Source: a virus
Reading direction: 5' to 3' (one strand)
DNA length: 64,000 bases
IMG/VR virus record: IMGVR_UViG_3300022903_000002
Span: 1-64,000 of that record
Below are positions 23,618 through 37,004 of this stretch, one piece after another. Every line of letters begins with the position of its first letter. The first letter of the stretch is position 1. The notes below the pieces were generated by a model. It did not search any database and was not told the DNA's origin. It saw only the letters and a program-made list of their open reading frames with translations. The position numbers and the translations under genes are program-made.

Positions 23618-23715
23618 TGTCGGCTTGACGTGGGAAAATGAACTCACGTTCGAACGCAAAGACCCCCGCGATGCGGTGAGGCATCCGGGGGCGTGGCCGA
23701 CTACCAGGAGTCGAC
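23618..23715 (+). promoter_or_regulatory. DNA-damage-type promoter cassette A: TGTCGG-N10-GAAAAT, LexA-like box, two-hairpin leader
   Basis: TGTCGG 23618-23623; -10 23634-23639; ATGAAC-TCAC-GTTCGA 23638-23653; hairpins 23663-23691 and 23696-23715. Confidence 0.65.
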
Positions 23716-24543
23716 ATGGTCAAGGATAGATGGCAGGCGAACCGGAATCCGTTCACCCCCAAGGAGGTTAAGGGGAAAGGTTCTGGGCTCCGTCCCAGCG
23801 TGGCTCGTTTGGTCGAGAAGCTGGACCCGGAGAGTGAGTCCTTCGCGCGGAGCACGGCGATCCTCGCAGATATGGCCGCAGCCGGAGTTGAGATCAACGA
23901 GGCCGCCGTAGACATCGCCATCAAGCTCGCGGTCCAGAACCGGGCTCGCGACTCCGGAGTCATAGCGGCGAGTCGCGAACTGGAGTCACGCCCACTTCGC
24001 CTCTGGGGAGAGCAGGACGATCGAGAGTCGATCGTCTACTACATCCGGCGCGGCGACCTCATCAAGATCGGAACGACCACGAACCCCAAGCGGAGATTCG
24101 AGGCTCTGGTTCCCGATGAGATTCTGGCTTGGGAGCCGGGAGGGACAACCGAAGAGGCTTTGCGTCACCGCCAGTTCCGTAGGCTCAAGCAGGGCATAGG
24201 CGAGTACTTCCGAGGAGAACCAGATCTGCTCCGGCACTGCCGGAAGCTCCGAGCGCTTCATGGTGACCCGGATCCGCAGTGGGCCACGACGGCGACCGTA
24301 GGGCTGGGGACCCCTGGCCGAGCACCGCTTCCAAGCGAACTGCCCCTGCCGGAATCAACGATCCTTGTCACTGCTGCCGAAGCGGCGGACCGCCTCAACA
24401 TCAAGCCAGCGACCGTCCGGGGCTGGATAGCCCGAAAGAGACTGCTCCCTGTAGCAAGAGATGAGGAGAGGCGAATGCTCTTCTACCTCGACCATGTTCG
24501 TTTCCTGAAGGGTCATAGCAGGGCGTACCGCGACGTTGCGTGA
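23716..24543 (+). CDS. GIY-YIG (T5orf172/MUG113-like) domain protein with C-terminal HTH
   Basis: 'VYYIRRGDLIKIGTT.N...R', 'EPGG...E..RHRQF', 'EAA.RL.IKPATVRGW'. Confidence 0.8.
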   Translation: MVKDRWQANRNPFTPKEVKGKGSGLRPSVARLVEKLDPESESFARSTAILADMAAAGVEINEAAVDIAIKLAVQNRARDSGVIAASRELESRPLRLWGEQDDRESIVYYIRRGDLIKIGTTTNPKRRFEALVPDEILAWEPGGTTEEALRHRQFRRLKQGIGEYFRGEPDLLRHCRKLRALHGDPDPQWATTATVGLGTPGRAPLPSELPLPESTILVTAAEAADRLNIKPATVRGWIARKRLLPVARDEERRMLFYLDHVRFLKGHSRAYRDVA

Positions 24544-24615
24544 TAACGGGCGTGTCCGAGTTGCGGAATGTGCCCTTGACCTGCTCCAATAGCAGAAGTC
24601 CACGGACACAGGTAT

Positions 24616-24647
24616 GCCCCGACGAGGTCACCTCGTTCGGGGCTTTT
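24616..24647 (+). terminator. Intrinsic terminator-like hairpin
   Basis: GCCCCGACGAGG-TCA-CCTCGTTCGGGGC followed by TTTT. Confidence 0.55.
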
Positions 24648-24669
24648 CGCACGTCAGGGGGCCTTTTAG

Positions 24670-24948
24670 GTGTCACCCGAAGACCCTCCAGTCGAGCCCG
24701 TCACCGTCTACGCGGCAGCCGAACGGCTCGGCAAGGCACCCTCCACGATTCACTGGTGGGCTATCCACTACGGCGCCCGGAAGCTCGGCAAGGTCGACCG
24801 GAAGACGTACTTCGACTACCTCGACCTCATGGTGATCGAGCGGGAGCTGTTCCATGAGCACCCGATCCCGGCGACGTGGCAGGAGCGTGCGGAGATCCGC
24901 GAACGCTGCCCCCTGAAGACCACCCAGCCTTTTCCCGCCGCTGCCTGA
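24670..24948 (+). CDS. Small HTH DNA-binding protein
   Basis: 'TVYAAAERLGKAPSTIHWWA'. Confidence 0.7.
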   Translation: MSPEDPPVEPVTVYAAAERLGKAPSTIHWWAIHYGARKLGKVDRKTYFDYLDLMVIERELFHEHPIPATWQERAEIRERCPLKTTQPFPAAA

Positions 24949-25094
24949 CCCCTGATCGCGCGCCCGTCCCACCTCGCGGAGGACGTGAGGCGCGCCCGCC
25001 GGCGACGTGCCCCCCAGAGTCCCGTCGCCTGGCGCCCCCTGTGGTTGACGGCCCGAGCCCACGTGAAGGGGAAGTCACGTCGTCGCTCGGGCCG

Positions 25095-25490
25095 TCAGCC
25101 CAGCAGGAGAACATCCGTCTTCCCGCCGCTCTTCTGTAGGGCGGCTGCGTAGCCGAGGTCCCGTAGCCGGGTTTGGATGACCCGCTCCGGCCCCCACCGT
25201 GCAGGCACCTCGACAGCCGCGGACGCCGCAGGATGGTGGCGTCTCCGGATACTCACCCCGTCGTAGACGTACAGCCCCCAGAGGGCTTGTGACGCGTCGG
25301 GGTCACGCGGCTGGTGCTGCATCCACGCCATCCAGACCTCGCCGTGGACGAACCAGCAGTGGATCGACCCAGTCCGCCACGCACCCTCATACCGGATCCA
25401 GACGAGTACGTGGCGTGCTTCGACGCGCCGCATCCCTGGTGGGCGCGGGTCCACGAGCCGGGCATCATCCACCGGCCCATCATCGAACAT
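25095..25490 (-). CDS. Hypothetical protein, likely SOS-regulated
   Basis: MFDDGPV... start lies within a LexA-type box; TACCAT -10 just upstream. Confidence 0.6.
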   Translation of the reverse strand: MFDDGPVDDARLVDPRPPGMRRVEARHVLVWIRYEGAWRTGSIHCWFVHGEVWMAWMQHQPRDPDASQALWGLYVYDGVSIRRRHHPAASAAVEVPARWGPERVIQTRLRDLGYAAALQKSGGKTDVLLLG

Positions 25491-25498
25491 GCTTTCGA
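25483..25498. promoter_or_regulatory. Actinobacterial LexA (SOS) box
   Basis: TCGAAC-ATGC-TTTCGA, one mismatch to TCGAAC-N4-GTTCGA. Confidence 0.7.
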
Positions 25499-25522
25499 CT
25501 GATGGTAGGGCGGGGGTGTCGG

Positions 25523-25732
25523 ATGGCACGTGAGACCACGTACTACTGCGAAGCCCCGGACTGCAGCATCCACGTCCGCTCCACCGCACCTGCACCCGTC
25601 TGCGGCTGGCTCCTCGTCCAGGAACCCCAGGACGACGGCACGGTCCGCGACATCGACGTTTGCGGTTGGACCTGCCTCCTGCGTCTCGCGGCCGGCATCG
25701 ACCCGGAAGAGGTCATCGAAGCCGCCCTCTGA
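25523..25732 (+). CDS. Small Cys-containing protein
   Basis: 'YYCEAPDC...CGWTCL'. Confidence 0.65.
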   Translation: MARETTYYCEAPDCSIHVRSTAPAPVCGWLLVQEPQDDGTVRDIDVCGWTCLLRLAAGIDPEEVIEAAL

Positions 25733-25735
25733 TCG

Positions 25736-25785
25736 CCCGGCCTGTCCCCTGAGAGTGGGCGGCAGGCCGGGTCAGCCCACTCTCA
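25736..25785 (+). ncRNA. Intergenic hairpin with loop-downstream pairing (pseudoknot/switch), copy 1
   Basis: Stem 25736-25746/25761-25771; loop TGAGAGTGGGC 25750-25760 complementary to GCCCACTCTCA 25775-25785. Confidence 0.6.
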
Positions 25786-25802
25786 ACCCGAAAGGCTCAG
25801 CG

Positions 25803-26150
25803 ATGAGCGAGTCACACGACGGCGCGGCGTTCACTCCTACCGATGCACTCGAGAAGCTTCACTACGTTGACGATGTCCGCACCACAGCGAAGCGCCTTGC
25901 CGCCTACCGGGACGAGTTGGTCGCTGCTGGATTCACCTCTGATCAGGCCAACGAGTTCGTCGCCACTGCCGCACCGGGGCTGATCGAGGATCTCGTTGTC
26001 GCTGCCGATGTAGAGGACGAGAACCCGCCGATCGGTGAGGTTCGCATCCACCTGCGACCCCAGATCAATGACGAGGACATCGCTCGCGTAGCGCAGGAGA
26101 TCCAGCGGCGCGCGGAGATCGGCCAGCGATTTCTCGGACGGTCACTCTGA
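25803..26150 (+). CDS. Hypothetical protein
   Basis: GAAAGG RBS. Confidence 0.65.
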   Translation: MSESHDGAAFTPTDALEKLHYVDDVRTTAKRLAAYRDELVAAGFTSDQANEFVATAAPGLIEDLVVAADVEDENPPIGEVRIHLRPQINDEDIARVAQEIQRRAEIGQRFLGRSL

Positions 26151-26518
26151 TGGCGCCCGCAGGCAACGCCGAGGTCGACTTCAAGATTGTCGTCGGCGGC
26201 GTGGACTTCGCAGGCGGACTAATCGACCTGCCGGTCACGGTCACCCAGCAGGAGAACACCGATGACGGCATGCGCCTGTCGGTTATCCCGGACTGGACAG
26301 CGTTCCGGGCGAATCTGGGTAACCAGCTTCGCCGTATTGCGTCGGAGTTGCCGTACTTCCCGGACCCGGAAGCGAAGTGTTCTGCGCACGGTGACCGGAT
26401 GTGCGGGCAGTGCGCCCAGAACCCATCAACCTGCGGAGAGCCCTACGGCCAGTGCGGGACGTGGATGTCGATCGGGATGCACTGGGACACCTGCCCGAAC
26501 CGCGTGAGGGGCTTCTGA
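26150..26518 (+). CDS. Hypothetical protein with Cys-rich C-terminus
   Basis: TGATG coupling. Confidence 0.65.
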   Translation: MAPAGNAEVDFKIVVGGVDFAGGLIDLPVTVTQQENTDDGMRLSVIPDWTAFRANLGNQLRRIASELPYFPDPEAKCSAHGDRMCGQCAQNPSTCGEPYGQCGTWMSIGMHWDTCPNRVRGF

Positions 26519-26754
26519 TGGCTGACGGCACCCCCATTGATCTGGACAAGCTCCGCAGCATTGGCGTGATCTCCCGCCGCACCCGTAACCAGGTTCGTGA
26601 AGGCCGCGACGCCAGCTCAGGCGAGCGTTTCAAGGCGGTCACGGACGAGCTCGGGAACACCGTCACCCAGCGCGGCAACGACCGGCAGGACGTCACGATC
26701 CGCGCCCCACGCGTAGCACTGAAGACAACGTCCGCTGAGGAGCCACACCAATGA
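26518..26754 (+). CDS. Hypothetical protein
   Basis: TGATG coupling; 'IDLDKLRSIGVI'. Confidence 0.65.
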   Translation: MADGTPIDLDKLRSIGVISRRTRNQVREGRDASSGERFKAVTDELGNTVTQRGNDRQDVTIRAPRVALKTTSAEEPHQ

Positions 26755-26972
26755 ACGCTGCCGAACAGGCCGCGAACCTCCGCGCCCAGGCGGACAGTCT
26801 CGAAGCTCTCGCTGATCTCGAGCAGAAGGCCGACGCTGCGACGAAGGCCTATCGCAAGACCCGGTCGGAGAAAAACAAGGTCGCGTACCGCTCGGCGGCA
26901 GAAGCGCTGCGTGCTGCCCGTGCTGATGCTCGGCCCGCCGAGACGACTGTTACGACCGGCGAGGGGGCGTAA
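26751..26972 (+). CDS. Small helical protein
   Basis: GAGGAG RBS. Confidence 0.65.
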   Translation: MNAAEQAANLRAQADSLEALADLEQKADAATKAYRKTRSEKNKVAYRSAAEALRAARADARPAETTVTTGEGA

Positions 26973-26974
26973 CC

Positions 26975-27421
26975 GTGGCCGTATCTGCGAGCGGCATGTT
27001 CGTCGCCAACCTAGTCGACATCCTCGACGCCACCCAGCTGGCCGTCGACCTGTCGCTGACTACCAACAAAGTCGCCCTGTTCACGAACTCGATTACGCCC
27101 AACTTCGACAGCGACGTGGGCTACGGCGCCGCGCCTTACAACGCCAACGAAGTGAGCGGAACCGGGTACACGGCCGGTGGTGTAGCGGTCGCTTCGCCGA
27201 CCGTCACAGGTGCGAGCGGGAACGTCACCTACGACATTGCCGACACCTCATGGTCGAGCTCCACCATCACGAACGCCCGTGCTGCGCTGATCTACGCGAA
27301 CGCGCTGACGAACAAGAACGGCATCGTGCTCGTGAACCTAGGAGCCGACTACTCAACTGTGAACGGGACGTTCAGCATCGTCTGGTCGGCGAGTGGGGTC
27401 CTGGTCCTCGACGTCGCATAA
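26975..27421 (+). CDS. Putative virion structural protein
   Basis: 'KVALFT...NEVSGTGYTAGG...D.SW.S.TIT.AR.ALIY...GTF.I.W' pattern typical of phage proteins that precede fibre genes. Confidence 0.7.
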   Translation: MAVSASGMFVANLVDILDATQLAVDLSLTTNKVALFTNSITPNFDSDVGYGAAPYNANEVSGTGYTAGGVAVASPTVTGASGNVTYDIADTSWSSSTITNARAALIYANALTNKNGIVLVNLGADYSTVNGTFSIVWSASGVLVLDVA

Positions 27422-27430
27422 GGGGTCGTC

Positions 27431-29611
27431 GTGGTCACTCTTGTCGGTGCTGATGCCGGCGGCGGCAACGTCGCCACCATCACCGACCTGACCTGGCCCG
27501 CCGTCCAAGCGAACGACGTCGCTGTCGTCGTCTGGGTCATGCAGAACACCCTCACCCCGACTATCCCGTCCGGATGGACCGTCCCCAGCGGCGGCGCCGT
27601 AGACGCGACGAACGGGGCGAGCCGCACCCGCGTCATGTGGAAGGCCTGCACCGGCTCCGAAACCGGCGCGCTTTCCCTGACGAACTCCACCAGTGCGATC
27701 AACCACCAGTCCGCGATCCTGCTCGTCTACCGCGGCGTCGACACGACAGCACCGATCGACGCACTGAACTCCCGGTCCGAGACGACCGCGGGTACGACGC
27801 ACGCGTCGCCGAGCATCACGACGGTCGCGGCGAACGCCCCGGTTCTGGCTGCGGTGATCGAACGGTCCACGTCCGGCACAAACAACTGGACTGCGCCCAG
27901 CGGCTACACCGAACGCGCTGACTCCACGACACTCGCGACTGGGTCGGGCGGCACGATCGTCGCTGGCGCTGATGACGGCCTCGCGGTTACACGTTCGGGC
28001 GGGACGACAGTCACGCCAAGCGTGTGGACGTCAGCGAACTCGTTCAGTACCGCGAACGTGGTGACGTGGACGCTGAGCTTGAAGCCGGGCGCGACGAACG
28101 CGGCCCCGACCCCGTCCGCGGTCTCAGCGGTCGCTGCGGTTCCGGCGCCGGGACCGGCCACGGGAGAGACAACCTCTCCTGCCGCTGCGGTGGCGGTTGC
28201 CGGGGTTCCGGCGCCTTCGGCGTCGACGGGTTCAGCAGCCTCGCCTTCCGCCGCCGCGGCGACAGCGGCTGTTCCCGCGCCATCTGTGCAGGCGGGCGAG
28301 ACGGCCTCCCCGCCTGTTGTGGTTACCGCCGCGGCGGTACCGGCACCATCGGCTCAGACCGGATCCGTTGCGGCACCCTCCGCTGCTACCGCTGCCACGT
28401 CGGTGCCCGCCCCGGCCTCCTCGGCAAGCGCTACCGCCGTAGCCGCTGCCGTCACAGCCGTGGCCGCTGTACCGGCCCCGGTCTCATCGGCCGGTGCCGC
28501 TGCGACTCCCGCGACGGTCTCTACGGTGGCGTCCGTCCCCGCGGCTGCCGAGGCGACGGGCAGCACCCTCACACCGACCACGGTCACCGCATCCGCAGCC
28601 GTACCATCTGCGGCATCCTCGGCGAGTTCTTCCGCGGCCCCGGCGGCAGTCTCAACAGCGGCAACGATTCCTACGGTCAGCGCGGCCACGGACGCGACAT
28701 CCGCAGCCGCCACGGTTACAGCATCGGCTACGGTTCCGCCTGTTGCGGTCGCCGCAGGAGAATCCGCGCAGCCCTCAACGGCGTCGGCTACGGCATCCGT
28801 CCCGGCGCCTGCCGCCACGACAGGGGCGACTGCAGCGGCAACCCCCGTTGTCGTCTCAACGACCATCTCCGCCCCGGCCATCTCAGCGGGGGCGACAGCC
28901 AACCCCGCACAGGTCGATGCGTCCACGACGGTTCCAGCACCGACCGTGGACACGAGCGGCAACACGACGGTCGCCCCGTCCACGGTTCGCGCCGCTATTG
29001 ATGTGCTTGTTCCGGCGACCTCGGCGAGCTCGTCTGCGACGCCGGCCACGGCCGCGGGTAGCGCCTCGACCGGTATGCCGACCGTCGCCGCGAGGACCGA
29101 AGCGGACCCGCCACCGGTCGTAACATCCACCGCTGTTCCAGGACCTTTGGCCAGCAGCGGCTCCGCGGCGCAACCGTCGGCTGTAGCCGCCACTGCCGCG
29201 ATCCCCGCGGTCGTGAGCAGCGTGGCCACTGTTGTAGCCGCAACGACAGCGACGGCAGGCTCGACGGTACCGGCGCCTACGACGCTCATCAGTGTCCGCA
29301 CCGATGCTGGTGTGGTCGCTGCACTCGCGACGGTCCCGACCGCGGCTACCTCCACGGACCACGGCACCGAGGCGACGCCGAGTGTCGTCCACGGACACGC
29401 GACCATCCCGCACCCGACAGTCAACGTCCCGGACATCCAGCCAGTCCCAGATCACCTCACCGGTACGGCTATCGTCACCGGTTACGCCGGGACCGTCCAC
29501 CTACGCCAGCTCAGCGGTTCGGCCTCCCGCCGGCCCCGCTCTGGAGCGGCTACGCCCTACGCCTACAGCGGCACGGCGACACCGGAGCTACTTGTTGGGA
29601 CAGCGAGGTGA
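27431..29611 (+). CDS. Fibre-like virion protein: beta-rich N-domain + ~20 Ala/Ser/Thr/Pro-rich 22-aa repeats
   Basis: Repeat unit e.g. TGETTSPAAAVAVAGVPAPSAS; N-domain paralogous to 58773-59828. Confidence 0.75.
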   Translation: MVTLVGADAGGGNVATITDLTWPAVQANDVAVVVWVMQNTLTPTIPSGWTVPSGGAVDATNGASRTRVMWKACTGSETGALSLTNSTSAINHQSAILLVYRGVDTTAPIDALNSRSETTAGTTHASPSITTVAANAPVLAAVIERSTSGTNNWTAPSGYTERADSTTLATGSGGTIVAGADDGLAVTRSGGTTVTPSVWTSANSFSTANVVTWTLSLKPGATNAAPTPSAVSAVAAVPAPGPATGETTSPAAAVAVAGVPAPSASTGSAASPSAAAATAAVPAPSVQAGETASPPVVVTAAAVPAPSAQTGSVAAPSAATAATSVPAPASSASATAVAAAVTAVAAVPAPVSSAGAAATPATVSTVASVPAAAEATGSTLTPTTVTASAAVPSAASSASSSAAPAAVSTAATIPTVSAATDATSAAATVTASATVPPVAVAAGESAQPSTASATASVPAPAATTGATAAATPVVVSTTISAPAISAGATANPAQVDASTTVPAPTVDTSGNTTVAPSTVRAAIDVLVPATSASSSATPATAAGSASTGMPTVAARTEADPPPVVTSTAVPGPLASSGSAAQPSAVAATAAIPAVVSSVATVVAATTATAGSTVPAPTTLISVRTDAGVVAALATVPTAATSTDHGTEATPSVVHGHATIPHPTVNVPDIQPVPDHLTGTAIVTGYAGTVHLRQLSGSASRRPRSGAATPYAYSGTATPELLVGTAR

Positions 29612-29614
29612 ACC

Positions 29615-29950
29615 GTGGCCCGCGTCACGCCCCTCACTCTCGATGAGAACAACGACGAAACCCTCGACCTGACCGTCACCGCAGACACGCTGATCGATCC
29701 GGATCAGGCCAGTTTCGAGTTGGTGATCAAGGCGTCCGCATCTGCGGATGATGCTGACGGTACGACGCTCACTGACGCGGACGGCATCACGGTCACCTCA
29801 ACGGAGCCGGCCAAGACCATCGCCCTAACCGCGGACATACCGGCGAGCGTGCTCGAGACTCCAGGCACCCGGTTCTGGCGCCTGGACGTGATTGTTTCCG
29901 GGAAGCGCGGCACCGCGATGTACGGGCCTCTCCGGATCCGGGACCTGTGA
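29615..29950 (+). CDS. Hypothetical (likely structural) protein
   Basis: GAGGTGA RBS; beta-rich acidic protein. Confidence 0.65.
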   Translation: MARVTPLTLDENNDETLDLTVTADTLIDPDQASFELVIKASASADDADGTTLTDADGITVTSTEPAKTIALTADIPASVLETPGTRFWRLDVIVSGKRGTAMYGPLRIRDL

Positions 29951-29959
29951 GGGGACTCG

Positions 29960-30643
29960 GTGACCGCTGACCTCCTGATGATCGTCCCGTCCCGTGGACG
30001 CCCACAGAACATCGCCGCCCTGTGGGAAGCGTGGGAGGCCACATCTGGTGGCGTCGCGGAACTCCTCGTCGCCGTCGATGACGACGACCCGGCCCTGACC
30101 GAGTATGAGCAGGTCTGCCGGGAGCGGCACATCGACCTCACTGTCGGCCCTCGCTTGCGGATGGTGCCGACCCTTAACCAGGTCGCGGCCCGGTGGGCGC
30201 CGCATTTCTTCGCGCTCGGATTCCTCGGGGATGATCATCGACCCCGGTCTACCGGGTTCGATCAGCGGTATCTCGAGACCCTCATCGAGCTCCGCACGGG
30301 CTTCGTCTACGGCAACGACCTGCTCGCCGGCGAACGCCTCCCAACTCAATTCGCACTTACTTCGGACATCGTCCAGGCCCTCGGCGCAATGATCGCCGCG
30401 CCGGTCCGGCATATGTTCGCCGACAATACGATCTGGGACCTCGGACACGCGATCGACCGAATCCGTTACCTGCCCGACGTGATTGTGGAGCACCTGCATC
30501 CGATCGCGCAGAAGGCGGACATGGATGCGGGCTACGAAGAGGTGAACGACCCGGACGCGTTCGAAGCCGACCGCCTCATCTACGCGGACTGGTACGCGAA
30601 CCAGATGCCCGCGGACGTCGCCAAGCTGAAGACGCTCCTGTGA
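29960..30643 (+). CDS. Glycosyltransferase, GT-A fold (GT2-like)
   Basis: 'IVPSRGRP', 'VDDDD', 'GDDH', 'H.FAD', 'EHLHP'. Confidence 0.75.
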   Translation: MTADLLMIVPSRGRPQNIAALWEAWEATSGGVAELLVAVDDDDPALTEYEQVCRERHIDLTVGPRLRMVPTLNQVAARWAPHFFALGFLGDDHRPRSTGFDQRYLETLIELRTGFVYGNDLLAGERLPTQFALTSDIVQALGAMIAAPVRHMFADNTIWDLGHAIDRIRYLPDVIVEHLHPIAQKADMDAGYEEVNDPDAFEADRLIYADWYANQMPADVAKLKTLL

Positions 30644-31542
30644 GCCGCGCACTCGTATCCGGCGGCGCGGGATTCATCGGCCGACACCTCGTCCGCGCGC
30701 TCACCGACGCAGGCTGGGACGTCACAGCGTTCGACATCTACCCGCGCAAGATCCCGAAGGTTCGTTTCAGGGACGCACGGGCGTTCTTCTCCTCGGACGC
30801 CACGACCTACGATCTCGTGGTGCATGCTGCGGCGGTGGAGCCTCACCGGTCCGCGATCGACAATTCGCCGCTGACGGTCGGTGCCGGGAACCTCGAACTC
30901 GACGCTGGCCTGTTCCAGTGGGCGGCCCGAACCAAGCCCGGCCGCGTGGTGTACCTGTCGAGCTCCGCCGCATATCCGATCTGGCTGCAGGATGGCATCC
31001 ATCCCTACCGGCTTGTCGAGAAAGACGCGAGGAAAGCGCATCAGCCGGACGCGATGTATGGCGAACTCAAGGCGATGGGGGAGCGGCTCGCATCCGCGTA
31101 CCGGCAGCAGGGCGGCATGGTGACGGTCGTAAGGCCGTTCTCTGGCTACGGCGAGGACCAGTCTGAGGACTTCCCGTTCGGCGCGTTCACCGCCCGCGCT
31201 CGCCGCCGTGACGACCCGTTCGAGGTATGGGGCGACGGAACACAGGTCCGCGACTGGATCCACGTCTCGGATGTGGTGGGTGCGATCCTCGCGGCCTACG
31301 AGCACGGCGTTGACGGCCCCGTGAACTTGGCGACCGGACGGCCCACGTCCTTCAACGAGTTGGCTCTCATGTTCGCCGCGGAGGCGGGCTACGCGCCGCA
31401 GATCAAGCACGTCCTGGACGCTCCGCGCGGTGTCGCGTACAGGGTCGGAGACCCGACACTCCTGCGGACGTTCTACGAGTGCAAGGTGACGATTGAAGAG
31501 GGCATCAGGCGGGCGCTGCCTAGCGGCGCTTGTTGTTCCTGA
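30640..31542 (+). CDS. NAD-dependent NDP-sugar epimerase/dehydratase
   Basis: GGAGFIG Rossmann motif, 'SSSAAY', YxxxK (YGELK), 'GDGTQVRDWIHV.D'. Confidence 0.93.
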   Translation: MSRALVSGGAGFIGRHLVRALTDAGWDVTAFDIYPRKIPKVRFRDARAFFSSDATTYDLVVHAAAVEPHRSAIDNSPLTVGAGNLELDAGLFQWAARTKPGRVVYLSSSAAYPIWLQDGIHPYRLVEKDARKAHQPDAMYGELKAMGERLASAYRQQGGMVTVVRPFSGYGEDQSEDFPFGAFTARARRRDDPFEVWGDGTQVRDWIHVSDVVGAILAAYEHGVDGPVNLATGRPTSFNELALMFAAEAGYAPQIKHVLDAPRGVAYRVGDPTLLRTFYECKVTIEEGIRRALPSGACCS

Positions 31543-31627
31543 TCACCACGAACAAACTCCCCGCAGTGCTGCCGATAGTCGCAAGGATGAGCAACTCGGC
31601 TAGGTAGAGGAGCAGGTGTACGTTCAC
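31520..31627 (-). CDS. 35-aa single-TM peptide (not in ORF track)
   Basis: VNVHLLLYLAELLILATIGSTAGSLFVVIRNNKRR*; GACGAT-N6-GTG leaderless arrangement. Confidence 0.55.
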   Translation of the reverse strand: MNVHLLLYLAELLILATIGSTAGSLFVVIRNNKRR

Positions 31628-31684
31628 CTGGCCATCGTCCCACGGAGCAGGGCATTCGCCGGTCGCTCATGGGACAATAGAAAC

Positions 31685-31882
31685 GTGACCAGAGAGCCGA
31701 ATATGGATTGGGCCGCCCGAGTAGACGGTGAGATCATCCTCCAGATCACAGGGCCCGACGCCGAGGCAATGGTCCGCGCGGTCGCCGCCGAGCGCGGCGG
31801 TGTTGTGGCCTATCGGATAGACGAGCCGCCGAACGAGGACATCCCGTACACCCACTTTGGCCCCTGGATAGACGTCGAATGA
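31685..31882 (+). CDS. Small hypothetical protein (leaderless)
   Basis: GACAAT-N6-GTG start. Confidence 0.55.
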   Translation: MTREPNMDWAARVDGEIILQITGPDAEAMVRAVAAERGGVVAYRIDEPPNEDIPYTHFGPWIDVE

Positions 31883-31903
31883 CCTGACGGATCGGAGCGT
31901 GTC

Positions 31904-32140
31904 GTGTCCGCACCGAACGAACAGCCCATCTACCGGCGCCTCCGACCCCCGTCCGGAACGGCAGTGTGCGTGTCCACCCGAGACGACCGCATCACCATCG
32001 CCGTCGGCGCACGACAACGCGTCAACTGCGACCGCGAAGACGCATACGCCGTGTGGCGGGCACTGACGACGACCCTGTTCGCTGACGGCGGCACGGCCCC
32101 GAAGTGGGCGATGCGTCTACCAGAAGCCAGCAGCCGGTGA
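31904..32140 (+). CDS. Small hypothetical protein
   Basis: GGAG RBS; GTGA overlap with next gene. Confidence 0.55.
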   Translation: MSAPNEQPIYRRLRPPSGTAVCVSTRDDRITIAVGARQRVNCDREDAYAVWRALTTTLFADGGTAPKWAMRLPEASSR

Positions 32141-32811
32141 CCATCCCGCTGATCGTGTTGACGAACGGCCGCCGCGACTGCATCTCCCAGACGATCCCCA
32201 GCATCACCAAGCACCTGACCGGCTACGGCGACATGGTCATCGTGGACGACTCCGGGGACAAGGACTATCGGGCGTGGCTTGCCGTCGAGTTCCCGGACGC
32301 TCTCGTCACTGCCGTAGCCTCGGAGGCCGCCGGGTACTGGCGGGCGATGCGGACCGTCTGGGCGATCGCCCGAGGCTCCGGAGCCGACACGGTAGTGATG
32401 TGGGAAGACGACTTCGTTCTCCTCGACGACATCGACGTAGCGTGCCTCGACCGCGTCCTCGACGAGCACCCATACCTGACACAGATCGCTCTGCGCCGGC
32501 AGCCGTGGTTCGCCAACGAGATCGCGCACGGCGGGACGCTGGAAGCCCTGGAAGTGCAGGGCCAGACGTTCGCCGAGACCAGCGACGGCAGACACCATTG
32601 GATCGAGCACCGCGCCTGCTTCACCGGCAACCCGTGCTTCATCCGGCGCAGGACATTCGAGCGCGACTGGCCCGAGGGCGCATGGTCGGAGTCCCGCTTC
32701 GGCCGGCTCCTCTTCGCCGACCCTGACGCCCGTGGCGCGTACTGGGGACGTCGCAGCGACCCGCCCCACGTGGAGCACATCGGACACGAGCGGGTCGGGA
32801 CGGAGTATTAG
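32137..32811 (+). CDS. Glycosyltransferase, GT-A fold
   Basis: 'IVDDSG', 'WEDDF', 'FTGNP', 'V.HIG'. Confidence 0.75.
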   Translation: MTIPLIVLTNGRRDCISQTIPSITKHLTGYGDMVIVDDSGDKDYRAWLAVEFPDALVTAVASEAAGYWRAMRTVWAIARGSGADTVVMWEDDFVLLDDIDVACLDRVLDEHPYLTQIALRRQPWFANEIAHGGTLEALEVQGQTFAETSDGRHHWIEHRACFTGNPCFIRRRTFERDWPEGAWSESRFGRLLFADPDARGAYWGRRSDPPHVEHIGHERVGTEY

Positions 32812-32813
32812 TA

Positions 32814-33041
32814 ATGGACAGCCTCGAAGCTCTTCAGCGGGCAGTGCTCGACGCGGAGCGCATCTACGGCATAATCCGCGACGATCTCCAGCGTCAGCTT
32901 GACGCGGATGGCCATCAGCACCTGACGCCAGAACAGATGCGCGATCCGAACGGCCGATTCATCCTCCTGGACGCGCTCACCGCGATCGTCAATGCGCGGG
33001 CCACTCAGCTATGGGCCACACAGTCACTCGACCGCTCTTAA
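32814..33041 (+). CDS. Small hypothetical protein
   Basis: ORF after GGAG RBS. Confidence 0.55.
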   Translation: MDSLEALQRAVLDAERIYGIIRDDLQRQLDADGHQHLTPEQMRDPNGRFILLDALTAIVNARATQLWATQSLDRS

Positions 33042-33066
33042 AACATCTTCTGAGGTGGCTGCCGCC

Positions 33067-33630
33067 ATGGCTTTGAACGACCACGCCTCCACACTCCGCC
33101 AGGCAGCACTCGACGCCTCACAGCGCCTCCACGCCCAGATCGAAGGCGAGTTCGCTCTCCGCCCCGGCGTCGACCGCAACGAGACCACCCTCGACGCCGA
33201 ATTCGACATCCGCTCCACCGCCGAGACCTTCTACGCCTGGCTGAACGGCACCACCCACCTCAGCCTCGAACGCGGCCCAGTCACGAAGCAGACCCCCGGC
33301 AGCCCCGCCGGTACAACCCTGAACGAGGAGAGCACTGTGCAGATCCATGACGACGAGCAGTTCACCCTGTCCGTCCACACCACCGACGCCAAGGGCTTCG
33401 AAACCAGCGACCAGATCGACTGGGCCGTCGACAACACCGACGCCGTCACCCTCCAGGTCTCCGACGACGGCCGCTCCTGCACCGTCGTAGCTGGCCAGCC
33501 CGGCTCGGCCGTGATCACGGTGACGGACTCCGCCACCGACCCGGTCCTGTCCGCGACCGAAGCCGTCGACGTGGTCGCGGGCGGTACGGCGACGATCACC
33601 CTGACCGAGGGCGACGTCACCAAGCAGTAG
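33067..33630 (+). CDS. Protein with C-terminal Ig-like (Big_2-type) domain; possible internal start at 33337
   Basis: 'IDWAVDN.DAVTL.VSDDG.S.TV.A..PGSAVITVT'; internal GAGGAG-N6-GTG. Confidence 0.65.
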   Translation: MALNDHASTLRQAALDASQRLHAQIEGEFALRPGVDRNETTLDAEFDIRSTAETFYAWLNGTTHLSLERGPVTKQTPGSPAGTTLNEESTVQIHDDEQFTLSVHTTDAKGFETSDQIDWAVDNTDAVTLQVSDDGRSCTVVAGQPGSAVITVTDSATDPVLSATEAVDVVAGGTATITLTEGDVTKQ

Positions 33631-33640
33631 GTCTCAAGCT

Positions 33641-33708
33641 CCCGGCCTGCCTCGTACTTTCTGGAAGTGGGGCGTGCGTGCGCAGGTCGGGTCAAAGCCC
33701 CACTTCCA
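33641..33708 (+). ncRNA. Intergenic hairpin with loop-downstream pairing (pseudoknot/switch), copy 2
   Basis: Stem 33641-33650/33682-33691; loop TGGAAGTGGGGC 33662-33673 complementary to GCCCCACTTCCA 33697-33708. Confidence 0.6.
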
Positions 33709-33723
33709 ACTCAAGGATCGCTC

Positions 33724-34005
33724 ATGCAGAGCAAGCTTCCTGATCGCGACACTCGCGAATACGAGTGGTGGCTCGCAGGCGCTACCGCCGAGGTTGAGGC
33801 ACGCAAGGAAGGCCGCAGCAAACCCGGACTTCAGGTGCGCAGCTTCGTTGATGGGCTCGCCGAACACTATGGCGAGCTTGACGAGGCGCAGATCGCCGCA
33901 TTTGTGTTCAAGGTCTACACGGCTGGCCTGCCGCTGCGGATTCGGATCCGTCTTGCCCTGAAGGGCCCCACGTTCTCACCGCGCGGTAAGGGCAGTAATG
34001 GGTGA
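33724..34005 (+). CDS. Hypothetical protein
   Basis: AAGGA RBS; MQSKLPDR... Confidence 0.55.
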   Translation: MQSKLPDRDTREYEWWLAGATAEVEARKEGRSKPGLQVRSFVDGLAEHYGELDEAQIAAFVFKVYTAGLPLRIRIRLALKGPTFSPRGKGSNG

Positions 34006-34216
34006 GCCCCGCCGCTTCTACCTCCAGCGCGATACCGACGTAACCGGCGCGAGCGGTGTCGGCCGTGTCGCTGACGGCATTCTCTGGCCCGACGGCACCG
34101 CAACCGTCCACTGGCGAGGTGAGGACAACAGCGAAGTGTCCTGGCCGACCGGAATCGCAGGCATCGAACGCCGCTCCGGCCACGGCGGTGCGACCCGCAT
34201 CGTCTGGATCGACTGA
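33998..34216 (+). CDS. Conserved small phage protein
   Basis: 'F.L.R..DVTG.SG.G.VA.G..WPDG......GHGG.TRIVW'. Confidence 0.75.
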   Translation: MGEPRRFYLQRDTDVTGASGVGRVADGILWPDGTATVHWRGEDNSEVSWPTGIAGIERRSGHGGATRIVWID

Positions 34217-34233
34217 CAGGGGAAGGCCAGGTC

Positions 34234-34458
34234 ATGCCAGCCCACCAGAAGGCATACCGCCGCATCTTCGACATGGTCGCCCAGGCGAAATCCAGTAGAG
34301 ACCAAGACCGCTGGCTGGATGAGGCTCTGGACCTCCGGCAGCGGGCAACAGACTGGGACGCCGACCAATGGGGTTTCAACCCCGACCTGTGGATGGAAGC
34401 CGAGCGCGCCGAACTCGCGAGCCGCGGCGGCAACGACTGGCCCCAGGAACGCGCGTGA
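34234..34458 (+). CDS. Small hypothetical protein
   Basis: RBS; GTGA overlap with next gene. Confidence 0.6.
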   Translation: MPAHQKAYRRIFDMVAQAKSSRDQDRWLDEALDLRQRATDWDADQWGFNPDLWMEAERAELASRGGNDWPQERA

Positions 34459-35171
34459 GGGTCCTTGTAGCCATTCCGTGGAGACCGCAGCCTGACCGCA
34501 TCTACGCCCACGATCTGACCGTCCAGCGCTACAGGGAGCTTCTCCCCGACGCCGACATCGTGGACGTCGACACTGACCATGACCCGTTCAGCCTCGCCGC
34601 CTGCCGCAACAAGGGCGTCCGCCTCGCCGAAGGGGACGGCCACGACGTGGTCGTACTCGGCGACGCAGACACACTCGCGGAGCAGGAGCCTCTCCTCGCC
34701 GCCATCGACAGCGCGCGCAGCAGCGGCAAGGTACACCTGCCGTACACCTTCTACAGGTCCCTCGGCTTCTACGGCACCAACCAACTACTCAACGGCTTCC
34801 CGATCGAGACCTGCGACAACGTGACCATCCCCACGGCCACGAGCGGCGTCTATGTCGCCACCCCCGCGATCTGGTGGGCATGCGGCGGCCAGGACGAACG
34901 CATGCTCGGCTGGGGCATGGAAGATGTCGCGTGGCTCGTCGCCCACCGGGCGCTACTCGGCGGTGAACCTGTCCGGCATGACGGCAGCGTCTACGCACTT
35001 CACCACGAGTCCGCAGCCAAGCAAGGCGACCAGTACGAGCGGAACGTCGCGCTCTACCACCGCTACATCGAAGCTGGCGACTCCGGAAACCCCGACGCTG
35101 TACGCGCGGTCGTCGCCGAACATGCCGACGCTGTGACCTGCGGCAAGTCAACATCGTCCACCGGCGGGTAA
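34455..35171 (+). CDS. Glycosyltransferase, GT-A fold (GT7/GT2 C-terminal GWG.ED motif)
   Basis: 'IPWR', 'RN.GV', 'DADT', 'GG.DERMLGWGMED', 'LHH'. Confidence 0.82.
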   Translation: MRVLVAIPWRPQPDRIYAHDLTVQRYRELLPDADIVDVDTDHDPFSLAACRNKGVRLAEGDGHDVVVLGDADTLAEQEPLLAAIDSARSSGKVHLPYTFYRSLGFYGTNQLLNGFPIETCDNVTIPTATSGVYVATPAIWWACGGQDERMLGWGMEDVAWLVAHRALLGGEPVRHDGSVYALHHESAAKQGDQYERNVALYHRYIEAGDSGNPDAVRAVVAEHADAVTCGKSTSSTGG

Positions 35172-35178
35172 GCAGCTC

Positions 35179-35808
35179 CTACTGCCCGACCGCACTGATG
35201 CGCACCTGGGAACTCTTAGGCCCGTAGTCGACCCGGTACAACGGACTCCCTGCACTGTCGGTCACCTCAAGCGCACCCGGCCCGCCAGGGATGTTGTACA
35301 TCCACACGCCGGACACATACCTACCAGGCGACGGAGCCGGCTGTTCGATACCCGCCCACTCCTGACCCAGGCCATGACACGTACCTATCGTCCCCGGAGT
35401 CGTATCCGCCTGCCGCCCATCAAGCCCGAACCACTGCGACCCCGTCTGCGCATCAGTATCGTCACTGGAGTATTTGACCGTCCCGACGTTCCGCAACTTG
35501 AAGCTGACACACAGCGTCACAGTGCCCTTCGGATCCGAAGATGCCCGCGGCCGGGTCTTGAGCCCCGTCACGGTGATCTCCAAGTTCGCTGCACCTTCCG
35601 CTGTCGGCATCTGGTACTTGAACGGCCGCCCTACCTGGACCGCCGGCACGGGGATGTCGCTGGTCTTCGCGGTCGGCATGCACTCAGGGACCGCCTCATC
35701 GCACGGCTTGCCCGACTGAGCCCGCTTACCTGAAGCCTTGTGTTCCGCTCCGCCGCAGCCCGCAAGTGACAGGGCAAGCGCAGCGGTTACGAGGAGTGTC
35801 GTTTTCAT
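35179..35808 (-). CDS. Putative lipoprotein (moron)
   Basis: MKTTLLVTAALALSLAG-C lipobox; beta-sandwich-like body; opposite strand. Confidence 0.7.
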   Translation of the reverse strand: MKTTLLVTAALALSLAGCGGAEHKASGKRAQSGKPCDEAVPECMPTAKTSDIPVPAVQVGRPFKYQMPTAEGAANLEITVTGLKTRPRASSDPKGTVTLCVSFKLRNVGTVKYSSDDTDAQTGSQWFGLDGRQADTTPGTIGTCHGLGQEWAGIEQPAPSPGRYVSGVWMYNIPGGPGALEVTDSAGSPLYRVDYGPKSSQVRISAVGQ

Positions 35809-35872
35809 GACAGAGGGGACGGGCGAACTGCCCAGGTGGTTCGCACCGCCGCCGGATCCGGCCATGCGGGAC

Positions 35873-35981
35873 TGTCGTAGATGCGTGAGACACTAGATCA
35901 GACGTTCGAACTTAATAAGAGACCCCCGCGAGTGCTACCAACACTCCGGGGGCATGGCCGACCTGATGAGAGCAGATCGAC
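35873..35981 (+). promoter_or_regulatory. DNA-damage-type promoter cassette B: TGTCGT-N10-GACACT, LexA-like box, two-hairpin leader
   Basis: TGTCGT 35873-35878; -10 35889-35894; TAGATC-AGAC-GTTCGA 35894-35909; hairpins 35923-35952 and 35957-35981. Confidence 0.65.
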
Positions 35982-36800
35982 ATGACAGAGGCTACCCCCA
36001 AGTACTGTGCCGCCTGCGGAACGCCGTTTGCAGATGAGTCGCCGACAGGTAACAGGCGGTTCTGTTGTCGCAGGTGCTGGCGTCGGGCCAAGGAGCGGAG
36101 ATCGCGGGGCGTCTCAGAGCGAGATGTAGCTACGGTTTCGGATTGCGTGGCATGCGGAGCATCCCTCGCCGGGCGTCCGCACGGGACCAGACACTGCTCG
36201 AACGCCTGTTACCAGCGGGCGAGGAGACGCGAGAGGCTTGGCCAGCCGATAGCTGACCGAGCTGAGGAGATCGCCTGTCGGCGCTGCGGAGACCTGGTAT
36301 ATCGCCAGCACTGGTCCTTCACGCTGTACTGCTCCAAACGGTGTCGCGAGGCATACAACGCGTACCGCTACTTCAAGATGAGACGCCCCGAGATCGAACG
36401 AGCGTGCTTGGCGTGCGGTGCACCGATCTCCCCAGACGACACGCTCAGCAAGAAGTACTGCGATAGGCGATGCGCGGGACGCAATCGGTCGCCAGACGTC
36501 ATCTTCAGGTACGTGAATGCACGTCGCGCCTTGCTCTCCGGAGCCACAGCGCGTCGCGTCCCAAAGCGGGTACTGAGGCGTCTACGGTCAGCGATCTGCT
36601 TCTACTGCGGGAGCAAAGCCAACACTGTGGATCATGTGGTGCCTCTATCTCGTGGAGGCCAGCACGCAGAGGGCAACCTCGTACCTGCGTGCCGATCGTG
36701 CAACAGCAGCAAGGCCGACAAACTGTTGATCGAGTGGAGGTTGTGGCGCCGTGGTCGAGAACTCGCCGAACGACGTTCAGAAAGTTCAGCGGCTGCGTGA
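35982..36800 (+). CDS. HNH endonuclease with four N-terminal Cys4 Zn-finger repeats
   Basis: Repeated CxxCG...(F/H/Y)Cxx.C; 'CFYCG....TVDHVVPLSRGG.H..GNLVPAC..CN.SK'. Confidence 0.88.
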   Translation: MTEATPKYCAACGTPFADESPTGNRRFCCRRCWRRAKERRSRGVSERDVATVSDCVACGASLAGRPHGTRHCSNACYQRARRRERLGQPIADRAEEIACRRCGDLVYRQHWSFTLYCSKRCREAYNAYRYFKMRRPEIERACLACGAPISPDDTLSKKYCDRRCAGRNRSPDVIFRYVNARRALLSGATARRVPKRVLRRLRSAICFYCGSKANTVDHVVPLSRGGQHAEGNLVPACRSCNSSKADKLLIEWRLWRRGRELAERRSESSAAA

Positions 36801-37002
36801 CTGGGCAGTAAGCGGCCCGGGCCGAGCCCTCTTCAACTGGGGCACAGCTGGCGACTTCGCTAGGTGCGAGGCGTTCTATAAGGGCAAGATGCCCGAGCGG
36901 ATGATCCCTGGCTGGTGCGCCACGCTCCACAAGCTCGCTACTGGCGCAACACCCGGCCACGCTCCCGGAGAAGAAGTGGCACGCAAGACCACAGGCCACT
37001 AG
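36751..37002 (+). CDS. Conserved small phage protein
   Basis: 'WGT.GDF.RC...GWCA.LH..ATG..PG'; overlaps HNH 3' end. Confidence 0.65.
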   Translation: MVENSPNDVQKVQRLRDWAVSGPGRALFNWGTAGDFARCEAFYKGKMPERMIPGWCATLHKLATGATPGHAPGEEVARKTTGH

Positions 37003-37004
37003 CA

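Follow-up and report, generated by a model that had tools for sequence, protein, structure and literature searches.

The stretch of DNA analyzed here (the window) covers 64,000 nt of the virus record IMGVR_UViG_3300022903_000002 and carries two look-alike leaders, each leading into a nuclease gene (Table 1). The gene behind copy 1 gives a weak Pfam match (E = 1.7e-3) and a phrog_8604 match at 1e-16. As claimed in an earlier note on this DNA, the two proteins show no similarity (BLASTP E = 0.18), and the motifs and hairpins that it described for both copies are all in place. With GC3 values of 0.70 and 0.68 the two genes lie below the genome mean of 0.80. The core pattern GACCCCCGCGA-N(8-30)-TCCGGGGGC matches exactly twice in the window, where 100 shuffles give an expectation of 0, and these two matches remain the only ones in the entire 105,082-bp record.

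Table 1. Features of the two leader copies and the genes behind them.
Feature	Position	Strand	Remarks
Copy 1 promoter-like TGTCGG-N10-GAAAAT	23618-23639	+	TGg before the -10-like hexamer (extended TGn); resembles RecA-NDp
Copy 1 LexA-box-like palindrome ATGAAC-TCAC-GTTCGA	23638-23653		10/12 positions; GAAC-N4-GTTC core intact
Copy 1 hairpin 1	23663-23691		CCCCCG / bulged C / GAUGC-loop-GCAUC / CGGGGG
Copy 1 hairpin 2	23692-23718		outer 4 bp CGUG/CAUG including start codon; internal loop; inner stem CGACU/AGUCG
Copy 1 SD AGGAG	23706-23710		within hairpin 2
Copy 1 gene, 275 aa	23716-24543	+	T5orf172/MUG113-type GIY-YIG-superfamily domain, C-terminal MerR-like HTH
Copy 1 predicted antisense -10 TATCCT	23723-23728	-	sense A+8, T+12, A+13; codons 3-5
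Copy 1 predicted cis-antisense RNA, ~60-66 nt	23652-23717	-	two hairpins, UCUUUGCGUU tail; both ends predicted
Copy 2 promoter-like TGTCGT-N10-GACACT	35873-35894	+	TGa before the -10-like hexamer
Copy 2 LexA-box-like TAGATC-AGAC-GTTCGA	35894-35909		10/12 positions; one core mismatch
Copy 2 hairpin 1	35923-35952		CCCCCG / C / GAGUG-loop-CACUC / CGGGGG
Copy 2 hairpin 2	35953-35984		outer CAUG/CAUG with start codon 35982-35984; inner CGA.CUG/CAG.UCG
Copy 2 weak SD GAGAG	35968-35972		within hairpin 2
Copy 2 gene, 272 aa	35982-36800	+	HNH endonuclease (PF01844, 6e-12), N-terminal zinc ribbons
Copy 2 predicted antisense -10 TAGCCT	35989-35994	-
Copy 2 predicted cis-antisense RNA, ~65-75 nt	35908-35983	-	two hairpins, UCUCUUAUUAAGUU tail; both ends predicted

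On the sense strand both leaders fold into two adjacent hairpins (z = -3.5 and -4.2 against shuffles), whose helices abut without a linker. The similarity between the copies had been thought to end at the ATG, but the alignment extends it from TGTCG through +13 of each ORF, where A+8, T+12 and A+13 are the shared positions past the start codon; upstream of the leader, conservation is restricted to the promoter motif positions. The outer edges of this similarity, TGTCG and +13, coincide with the outer edges of two predicted promoters.

The leader has further homologs, viral as well as actinobacterial. We gathered 142 distinct copies from uncultured viral contigs, from Streptomyces and other actinobacterial genomes and from cultured phages, namely Gordonia phages of the Getalong group, Microbacterium phage Footloose and the Arthrobacter phages ArV2 and MargaretKali. 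A viral scan yielded at least 118 loci with about 65 true leaders among the matches listed, actinobacterial genomes contributed 25 more, and a scan that did not fix the region 3' of hairpin 1 (the anchor-free set) gave 55 further distinct copies. Most copies were found by sequence anchors, which fix some alignment columns; the restriction of position 43 to purines in the first set is forced by such an anchor. Among 151 genomes sampled from the phylum of a Streptomyces genome 12 contained a leader match, and within what was searched the family was seen solely in actinobacterial phages and prophages. Rfam holds no family matching the leader, in keeping with its supposed novelty. The leader is a widespread, undescribed control cassette of ~95 bases of actinobacterial phages that heads many unrelated genes, often those of selfish nucleases. 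The genes encode HNH, endonuclease VII, GIY-YIG and DUF559 proteins, one resolvase and many function-unassigned proteins of 60-120 aa, a range too wide for the nuclease-specific module that the earlier note had in mind; often the leader-headed gene codes for a DNA-cutting enzyme or opens the early operon of a prophage.

Changes on both sides were found in 10 of 20 base pairs (113 cells), a result matched by 0 of 500 shuffles and collapsing in slid controls, which agrees with the idea of a portable, covarying leader in front of unrelated genes. The direction of the tolerated mismatches separates the stems by strand. Across the 142 distinct leaders, hairpin 1 contains 71 A.C against 3 G.U cells, with 95.0% standard pairs on the sense and 99.4% on the antisense strand, while the inner stem of hairpin 2 contains 66 against 1 (88.7% sense, 97.9% antisense). 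The summed ratio of 137 A.C to 4 G.U among non-Watson-Crick cells therefore points to selection of both stems on the opposite strand, although, the leader sequences being related, fewer independent events lie behind these cells than the counts suggest. Counted as distinct stem variants, those with A.C outnumber those with G.U by 20:2 in hairpin 1 and 20:1 in the inner stem of hairpin 2. Even the apparent mismatch C47.A89 (121 leaders with C.A, 8 with C-G or U-A, 13 with another combination) forms a standard pair in 90.8% of leaders on the antisense strand, compared to 5.6% on the sense strand. The antisense fold was the stabler one in 79 of 92 comparisons for hairpin 1 and in 70 of 92 for hairpin 2; despite this bias the sense-strand hairpins still form. 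The bias is reversed in the 4-bp start-codon stem, where 139 G.U stand against 2 A.C and 97.5% of pairs are standard on the sense strand, so that this stem fits the mRNA. In the anchor-free set it shows 11 non-pairs in 214 cells, with variation consisting mostly of transitions, which cannot break a pair.

The bases conserved inside the ORF also make sense on the opposite strand. A+8 is present in 86, T+12 in 87 and A+13 in 87 of 89 leaders, with information content at background level past +13, and T+12 occupies a third codon position, in genomes whose GC3 is ~0.8. Read on the opposite strand, the three bases spell TANNNT, a -10 hexamer, within codons 3-5, and the antisense TANNNT recurs in 54 of the 55 anchor-free leaders. 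In leader L033, whose start codon is displaced, the hexamer holds its distance to hairpin 2 (1-nt shift) and not to the start codon (3-nt shift); in L118 and MargaretKali it lies 1 nt nearer. Neither a -35 nor an extended -10 accompanies the hexamer in the leader alignment, E. coli-type promoter and terminator scans returned nothing on either strand, and a lone hexamer is weak evidence for a promoter. The antisense RNAs predicted for the window copies form two clean hairpins each, with -30.9 kcal/mol (z -2.7) for copy 1 and -34.8 kcal/mol (z -4.5) for copy 2, whose sense leader reaches -27.6. Hairpin 1 on the minus strand would be the terminator-like 3' hairpin, followed by a tail that is at most U-enriched (~43% U), with a mixture of C and U in the Streptomyces group. 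This pattern suggests a small opposite-strand RNA that blocks translation, and from it we infer the synthesis of this RNA, its end point and its repressive action. The earlier note had considered a guide or antitoxin-like RNA; the antitoxin-like role comes close to these data, and for a guide role nothing was found.

On the sense strand, about 66 of 89 leaders have a TANNNT whose end lies 11-19 nt upstream of hairpin 1, and none of the 142 leaders contains one inside. The promoter and operator motifs of the window phage are a different matter. Of 86 leaders, 3 have TGTCR-N11-[TG]ANNNT and 4 have LexA-like boxes; other copies have different promoters at a fixed distance. TGTCG-N11-GANANT and the LexA-like box are hence outside the conserved leader module, and the ~110-bp unit first described as one cassette does not hold together, its promoter/operator part being missing in nearly all of the others. 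In both window copies the spacing between TGTCG and a -10-like hexamer (3 + 8 nt) is that of the RecA-NDp consensus tTGTCRgtg-8nt-TAnnnT (PMC5656591), but the hexamers have G in place of the initial T, and gct or tag replaces the consensus gtg. Mycobacterial genes with both RecA-NDp and LexA box exist (PMC8223512). In both window copies a perfect GTTCGA half-site of the actinobacterial LexA box directly follows the -10, in copy 1 overlapping the expected sense transcription start (~23646), but the boxes match only 10 of 12 positions. Of the proposed damage inducibility through PafBC and LexA, the motif resemblance stands, with the G-initial hexamers and 10/12 boxes as departures from the consensus; at the level of motifs we infer that LexA or PafBC may act on the two window promoters.

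Convergent promoters, a structured 5' UTR and a cis-antisense RNA together make up what we consider the best reading of the cassette, with a probability of roughly 55%. Each copy would be a self-contained, portable expression cassette of ~95-110 bp with two convergent promoters. The sense promoter, in the window phage TGTCG-N11-GANANT followed by the LexA-like box, would start the mRNA a few bases upstream of hairpin 1, and the 5' UTR would fold into the two adjacent hairpins, with the Shine-Dalgarno sequence spread over the loop of hairpin 2 and its 3' arm and with the start codon in a 4-bp stem with C-R-U-G. Codons 3-5 of the downstream gene would be constrained to N-A-N N-N-T A-N-N, which is TANNNT on the opposite strand. 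Transcription from this antisense -10 would begin across from the start codon and traverse the entire leader in reverse, giving a ~60-70-nt RNA that ends past the GC-rich mirror of hairpin 1 and the U-enriched tail. This RNA would be fully complementary to the SD/start region, the loop of its 5' hairpin would expose an anti-SD (CUCC), and its pairing with the mRNA leader would most likely begin between loops. Pairing would block ribosome binding, cleavage may follow, and the gene would stay silent until sense transcription outruns the antisense RNA, the signal for which in the window phage is probably DNA damage.

A possible though unlikely alternative is a purely cis-acting sense leader, in which the mRNA hairpins engage the start codon together with some of the SD, thereby limiting translation, and may also stabilize the mRNA 5' end, without any part for an antisense RNA. 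Good sense folds (z = -3.5 and -4.2), the start-codon stem with its G.U excess of 139 to 2 and 97.5% standard sense pairs, and the T4 precedent of structured RNA elements limiting homing-endonuclease expression all fit this proposal, as do the fixed-distance sense -10 boxes, which place the hairpins at the mRNA 5' end. However, it leaves unexplained why A.C exceeds G.U by 137 to 4, why C.A at 47-89 is nearly invariant and alternates with C-G and U-A, and why three ORF bases are invariant across more than 80 unrelated proteins; with the SD mostly in a loop and a start-codon stem of just 4 bp, the lock would also be weak. The translational RNA lock of the earlier note is accordingly retained for the sense-type start-codon stem and not as a purely cis hairpin lock, since the main stems carry the opposite-strand signature; more likely the lock is the cis-antisense RNA plus the small start-codon stem.

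We regard as improbable an element acting at the DNA level, be it bottom-strand ssDNA hairpins, a recombination or insertion junction or the end of a mobile nuclease cassette. G.T is the best-tolerated mismatch in DNA too, so the strand bias would fit a bottom-strand DNA hairpin; the conserved blocks are sequence-conserved stems, not loops, the cassette marks the 5' boundary of swapped genes, the nuclease genes have a GC3 below that of the genome, and in Footloose the leader and its HNH gene sit between the tail chaperone and tape measure genes (no near relatives for defining insertion boundaries were found in the phage collection). Against this, orientation and distance to SD, start codon and sense -10 are always fixed, the positions conserved within the ORF correspond to a promoter hexamer and to no known recombination core, and neither terminal repeats nor target duplications turned up. 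Least probable of all appears an operator whose conserved stem sequences are read by an RNA-binding translational repressor or processing enzyme, for example a protein of phage or host origin, or RNase III working on the coaxial stack of both helices: conserved nucleotides in stems, bulged C and internal loop outside the hairpin loops, abutting helices and an occurrence in phages of several actinobacterial genera, compatible with a conserved host factor, speak for it, but no candidate protein co-travels with the cassette, the neighborhoods differ, and a protein site on the mRNA predicts neither the antisense-strand pairing bias nor TANNNT in the ORF. As RNase III commonly cleaves sense/antisense duplexes, this operator is compatible with the antisense model.

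For the proposed antisense control of the cassette, three known systems come closest. Free-standing and intron homing endonucleases of the T4 family are likewise phage selfish nucleases held down by RNA structure near the gene start, with RBS-sequestering hairpins in I-TevI, segB and mobE. In mobE an intrinsic terminator hairpin lies just inside the gene (PMC2790892). T4 control involves read-through transcripts, with the RBS freed when transcription starts at an internal late promoter, whereas each cassette here has its own upstream promoter, lacks a sense TANNNT inside the leader and has its structure selected on the opposite strand. In IS10/Tn10, a selfish element encoding a DNA-cutting enzyme, the promoter of the 69-nt antisense RNA-OUT lies just within that enzyme's gene; the RNA is complementary to the region of RNA-IN where translation initiates and prevents ribosome binding, with repression increasing with copy number (PMC5006887). 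A promoter just inside the gene and an RNA opposing the initiation region are also predicted for the cassette, but RNA-OUT is a single long stem-loop instead of two predicted hairpins, and IS10 control relies on Hfq and is bound to the transposase, whereas the cassette serves a swappable gene slot. To our knowledge, actinobacteria lack Hfq. The 68-69-nt sar RNA of phage P22 runs opposite to the leader of ant, a gene that must stay low, pairs with its ribosome-binding region and blocks translation (PMC12197685). Size, position and convergent promoters correspond to those of the cassette, whose RNA is predicted, but sequence and structural homology are absent, the host of sar is enterobacterial and the cassette has its -10 in the first codons; sar is confined to one locus of one phage group, while the cassette described here is portable and heads dozens of unrelated genes.

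The virus record to which the window belongs is 105,082 bp long with ~65 % GC and an estimated completeness of 92 %, the window being its first 64 kb. Since its portal protein is ~45 % identical to the portals of Arthrobacter and Curtobacterium phages, we take it to be a phage of an actinobacterium. The earlier note had described one regulatory cassette in front of two unrelated nuclease genes, and both stretches were indeed found in place and built as described, while protein comparison agreed that the downstream genes are unrelated. The core pattern of hairpin 1 matches exactly twice in the window, with no match expected by chance, and neither a pattern scan nor a covariance model detected a third copy in the whole record. 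Copy 1 precedes a gene whose product combines a T5orf172/GIY-YIG-superfamily domain, weakly supported by Pfam and clearly by a PHROG match, with a MerR-like HTH. Copy 2 precedes a gene for an HNH endonuclease with zinc ribbons, which is directly followed by a second, small HNH gene and then by the gene of the large terminase subunit. GC3 values of 0.70 and 0.68 for the two leader-led genes, against a mean of 0.80 for the genes of this genome, are as expected for acquired genes.

Coordinates of the features are collected in the table. The small HNH gene resembles packaging-associated HNH genes and has no leader copy. Glycosyltransferase-like genes lie in the region between the two cassettes, where a sugar-modifying cluster may serve DNA or cell-surface modification. 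The window also encodes a tRNA-His guanylyltransferase-like protein, and ARAGORN finds no tRNA genes in it. Two T-arm-like GGTTCGAAC words in a stretch of ~2 kb beyond the window were considered as tRNA genes and rejected, as ARAGORN finds no tRNA there either. Megablast of a 14.5-kb region against cultured phages returned zero matches.

Coordinates of leader-associated features and of neighbouring genes (window positions unless stated otherwise)
Feature	Position	Strand	Remarks
tRNA-His guanylyltransferase-like gene	19524-20408	+	phrog_4717, E = 3e-78
GIY-YIG-superfamily ORF behind copy 1	23716-24543
Sugar-modifying cluster	29960-35171		methyltransferase/glycosyltransferase-like gene, nucleotide-sugar epimerase, two galactosyl-transferase-like genes
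HNH ORF behind copy 2	35982-36800
Second, small HNH gene	36915-37340	+	phrog_333, HNH_3; between leader-led HNH and large terminase
Large terminase gene	37851-39539
Antisense -10 hexamers of the window copies	+13 to +8 from start codon	-	TATCCT, TAGCCT
LexA-like box, copy 1			ATGAAC-TCAC-GTTCGA, 10/12, core GAAC-N4-GTTC intact
LexA-like box, copy 2			TAGATC-AGAC-GTTCGA, 10/12, one core mismatch
Stretch with the GGTTCGAAC words	67.9-69.8 kb of genome G000 (L441)		without high-GC3 ORFs
Two leaders of locus L383	6376-6446 and 7306-7385 of their contig		inner stems differ
Orphan leader of Arthrobacter phage MargaretKali (L122)	1494-1571		downstream of the final annotated gene, close to the right end of the genome

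In hairpin 1 of the ~95-base leader, a bulged C separates six conserved C-G/G-C pairs from a variable inner stem of five pairs. In the outer stem of hairpin 2, C-R-U-G forms four pairs with the start-codon segment C-[A/G]UG; an internal loop follows, and then a variable inner stem whose loop and 3′ arm hold the SD. The covariation seen in the two leaders of the window extends to a model-made alignment of 91 distinct copies, in which 10 of 20 pairs changed on both sides (113 cells) and 94 % of the cells are paired; 0 of 500 shuffles reached any measure, and slid controls collapsed. Compensatory changes occur even in the conserved outer stem of hairpin 1, as in the cultured phages Asapag (CCCCGG/CCGGGG) and MargaretKali (GUCCCG/CGGGAC), whose copies lie outside the reach of the search anchor. 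Three further elements were considered and rejected. The distance from the conserved RTG-GCC-GAC to the main start changes from 23 nt (copy 1) to 28 nt (copy 2), and with it the frame, and hairpin 1 leaves no space for an SD in front of such a uORF. CUGAUGAG in copy 2, a candidate hammerhead core, is missing from the other copies and gave zero ribozyme family matches, and a pseudoknot of the 5′ flank with the UA at +12/+13 fits Asapag and Footloose, not the window copies.

As the earlier note had supposed, the leader matches no named family: at gathering thresholds Rfam 15 has no match anywhere in the 64-kb window, at E ≤ 10 over both loci it has nothing that overlaps either leader, and no description of it was found in the literature. 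Viral contigs scanned with a 16-base anchor from the hairpin junction gave at least 118 loci, with the full two-hairpin leader and start codon in ~65 among the viral matches listed. The same kind of scan in prokaryotes, at one genome per species, revealed 25 leaders in 120 loci, those identified being mostly from Streptomyces plus one Jiangellaceae MAG. Of 151 genomes sampled from the phylum to which a Streptomyces genome belongs, 12 were matched by a model from 63 copies (11 of 150 when the unpublished genome G152 is left aside). Among cultured phages, BLAST located the leader before HNH genes in Gordonia phages of the Getalong group, including Asapag, Horus, BENtherdunthat, Budski, Leroy and LitninMcQueen, before an HNH gene flanked by the tail chaperone and tape measure genes of Microbacterium phage Footloose, and in Arthrobacter phage ArV2. 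No near relatives of Footloose were found in the phage collection for mapping the insertion boundaries. The leader of MargaretKali has no annotated ORF behind it and may indicate a missed gene or a relic. Several contigs hold two leader copies; those of L383, and likewise L368 and L395, which share a contig, differ in their inner stems as the copies of the window do.

Pfam assigned 85 distinct downstream proteins to HNH families (7), HNH_3 (4), endonuclease VII (3), DUF6415 (6) and, in one case each, GIY-YIG, DUF559/Vsr-like and resolvase families, the remainder being mostly family-less proteins of 60–120 aa. In one Streptomyces-type prophage the leader stands before a small gene in the region adjoining the integrase. 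Based on this census and the integrase-side gene, the proposed link to nucleases holds as an enrichment and fails as a specificity.

The variation within the stems allowed us to ask which strand carries the fold. Across 142 distinct leaders, hairpin 1 contains 71 A.C and 3 G.U combinations, with standard pairs in 95.0 % on the sense and 99.4 % on the antisense strand, and the inner stem of hairpin 2 contains 66 and 1 (88.7 % vs 97.9 %), which sums to 137 A.C vs 4 G.U. Counted by distinct stem variants, the ratios are 20 vs 2 and 20 vs 1. Every A.C reads as G.U on the complementary strand, so that both elements are much better paired there, and as single transitions yield G.U and A.C equally, the dominance of A.C indicates selection for the opposite-strand fold. 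Even the internal-loop "mismatch" of hairpin 2 (pair 47-89), for which 121 leaders have C.A, 8 have C-G or U-A and 13 have other combinations, is a standard pair in 90.8 % on the antisense vs 5.6 % on the sense strand. The outer stem with the start codon shows the reverse bias (2 A.C, 139 G.U; standard pairs 97.5 % sense, 73.1 % antisense) and fits the mRNA, a moderately supported assignment given that the bias is partly due to the first anchor, in which one position was set to a purine. With this segment left free in the anchor-free scan, 203 of 214 cells of this stem are paired, the variation being mostly of a kind unable to break a pair.

Conservation of the leader runs 13 nt into the ORF. 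There, A+8, T+12 and A+13 are kept in 86–87 of 89 copies, while the neighbouring positions and all positions past +13 are at background. With T+12 at the third position of its codon in genomes rich in GC, and with no relationship among the proteins encoded downstream, it is the nucleotides that are constrained. Read on the minus strand, the three bases spell T-A-N-N-N-T, the actinobacterial -10 hexamer, at whose edge the conservation stops. The hexamer is present in 54 of 55 anchor-free copies, for which the search pattern left these positions free. At locus L033, where the start codon has shifted by 3 nt, it lies no more than 1 nt off its usual distance from hairpin 2, and at L118 and in MargaretKali it is 1 nt nearer. 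The candidate start site, 6–8 nt downstream of the hexamer, offers two invariant purines, A opposite T+2 and G opposite C-1, which would place the 5′ end of the transcript at the base of the mirrored hairpin 2. The antisense RNAs predicted for the window copies fold into two clean hairpins (-30.9 and -34.8 kcal/mol), the first with a CUCC-type anti-SD in its loop and the second a GC-rich mirror of hairpin 1. This GC-rich hairpin is followed in the window copies by the tails UCUUUGCG and UCUCUUAU (the second also given as UCUCUUAUUAAG); across the family, the tail contains ~43 % U. Consensus scans detected neither a terminator nor a promoter on either strand; both are E. coli-type scans and carry little weight for actinobacteria.

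On the sense strand, a TANNNT ends 11–19 nt before hairpin 1 in ~66 of 89 leaders. From this placement the mRNA would start a few bases before hairpin 1, and the two promoters would face each other ~85–90 bp apart. No sense TANNNT lies between hairpin 1 and the start codon in any of 142 leaders, which excludes a lock of the T4 type with an embedded late promoter.

The promoter/operator segment is only ~60 % identical between the window copies, with the identity concentrated in TGTCG, CGTGR-GANANT and ACGTTCGAAC, and such clustering speaks for putative functional sites. The PafBC-dependent RecA-NDp promoter has the consensus tTGTCRgtg-8nt-TAnnnT (PMC5656591). TGTCG at the matching distance from the hexamer occurs in both window copies and in L044, a further leader locus; their hexamers are all GANANT with a G at position 1, the "gtg" is not kept, and the window contains 10 instances of the loose pattern vs 5.1 expected. 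The LexA box of actinobacteria follows the consensus TCGAAC-N4-GTTCGA. In both window copies the LexA-like box opens on the final bases of the -10-like hexamer and lies over the TSS, expected near 23646 in copy 1 and 35901 in copy 2; the loose pattern shows no enrichment, with 11 matches in the window vs 10.3 expected. Boxes of at least 10/12 lie upstream of 4 of 86 leaders vs 0 of 86 control stretches, all four before nuclease genes: the two window copies, L021 (HNH_3-type gene) and L116 (GIY-YIG gene). A LexA half-site as a family feature was rejected, as GTTCGA adjoins the leader in a single true further case (L342) among 118 loci of a viral scan for this arrangement. The earlier note had counted TGTCG and LexA sites as part of the cassette; with the TGTCR arrangement in just 3 of 86 leaders, and LexA-like boxes similarly scarce, they are not a property of it, and DNA-damage control is plausible, judging from these motifs, for this phage's copies and a few others. 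Many Streptomyces-type copies (L010, L012, L016, L017, L019 and others) have in common a palindrome TGCAATTGCA, 10–45 nt upstream of the leader, with the sense -10 (TAGCCT or TACCGT) on one side of it and hairpin 1 on the other, and further upstream direct repeats such as CCTATACC and CCTATCCC; together these may be the operator and iteron set of those prophages.

The best explanation, to which we assign a probability of roughly 55 %, is a portable cassette with two faces. Its sense face would be a promoter-led, structured 5′ UTR, and on its antisense face a convergent promoter would produce a cis-antisense RNA over the SD and start codon, with the fast-changing inner stems and loops giving each copy its own specificity. 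A lock acting purely in cis within the sense RNA explains part of the data, as do a hairpin or junction formed at the DNA level and a protein operator; none of the three covers the strand bias together with the opposite-strand TANNNT. A bolder version of the two-faced cassette, which we hold only tentatively and consider rather doubtful, would see in the leader a shared ~95-bp "expression socket", a convergent-promoter switch for mobile and early genes of actinophages and actinobacterial prophages. Its antisense RNA would combine conserved outer with fast-evolving inner stems and loops, making each copy a private, orthogonal sense/antisense pair, and its sense promoters would be wired to different inputs, here DNA damage via LexA-like and PafBC-like sites. 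If true, it would amount to a natural library of non-cross-talking riboregulators.

Should the predicted antisense RNA be real, it would represent a large family of RNA regulators, undescribed as far as we searched, at work in phages of Streptomyces, Gordonia, Arthrobacter, Microbacterium and relatives. To our knowledge, the actinobacterial hosts of these phages are without Hfq and few cis-antisense controls have been characterised in them. Such an RNA would account for the silencing of selfish nucleases and prophage early genes as well as for the nucleotide-level fixing of codons 3–5 in many unrelated phage genes, and would provide actinomycete engineering with repression modules that are small, portable and probably orthogonal. 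The cassette can also serve as an annotation marker for true start codons and free-standing mobile genes, and with cultured carriers at hand the antisense prediction is directly testable.

The manner of action proposed for the predicted antisense RNA is that of P22 sar on ant and of IS10 RNA-OUT on RNA-IN. Two features of this cis-antisense type recur in the leader family: at the sequence level, the 5′ end of the target gene carries a putative opposite-strand promoter that faces back over the SD and start codon, and antisense stem-loops under selection are evident from the strand bias, pair 47-89 and the antisense folds.
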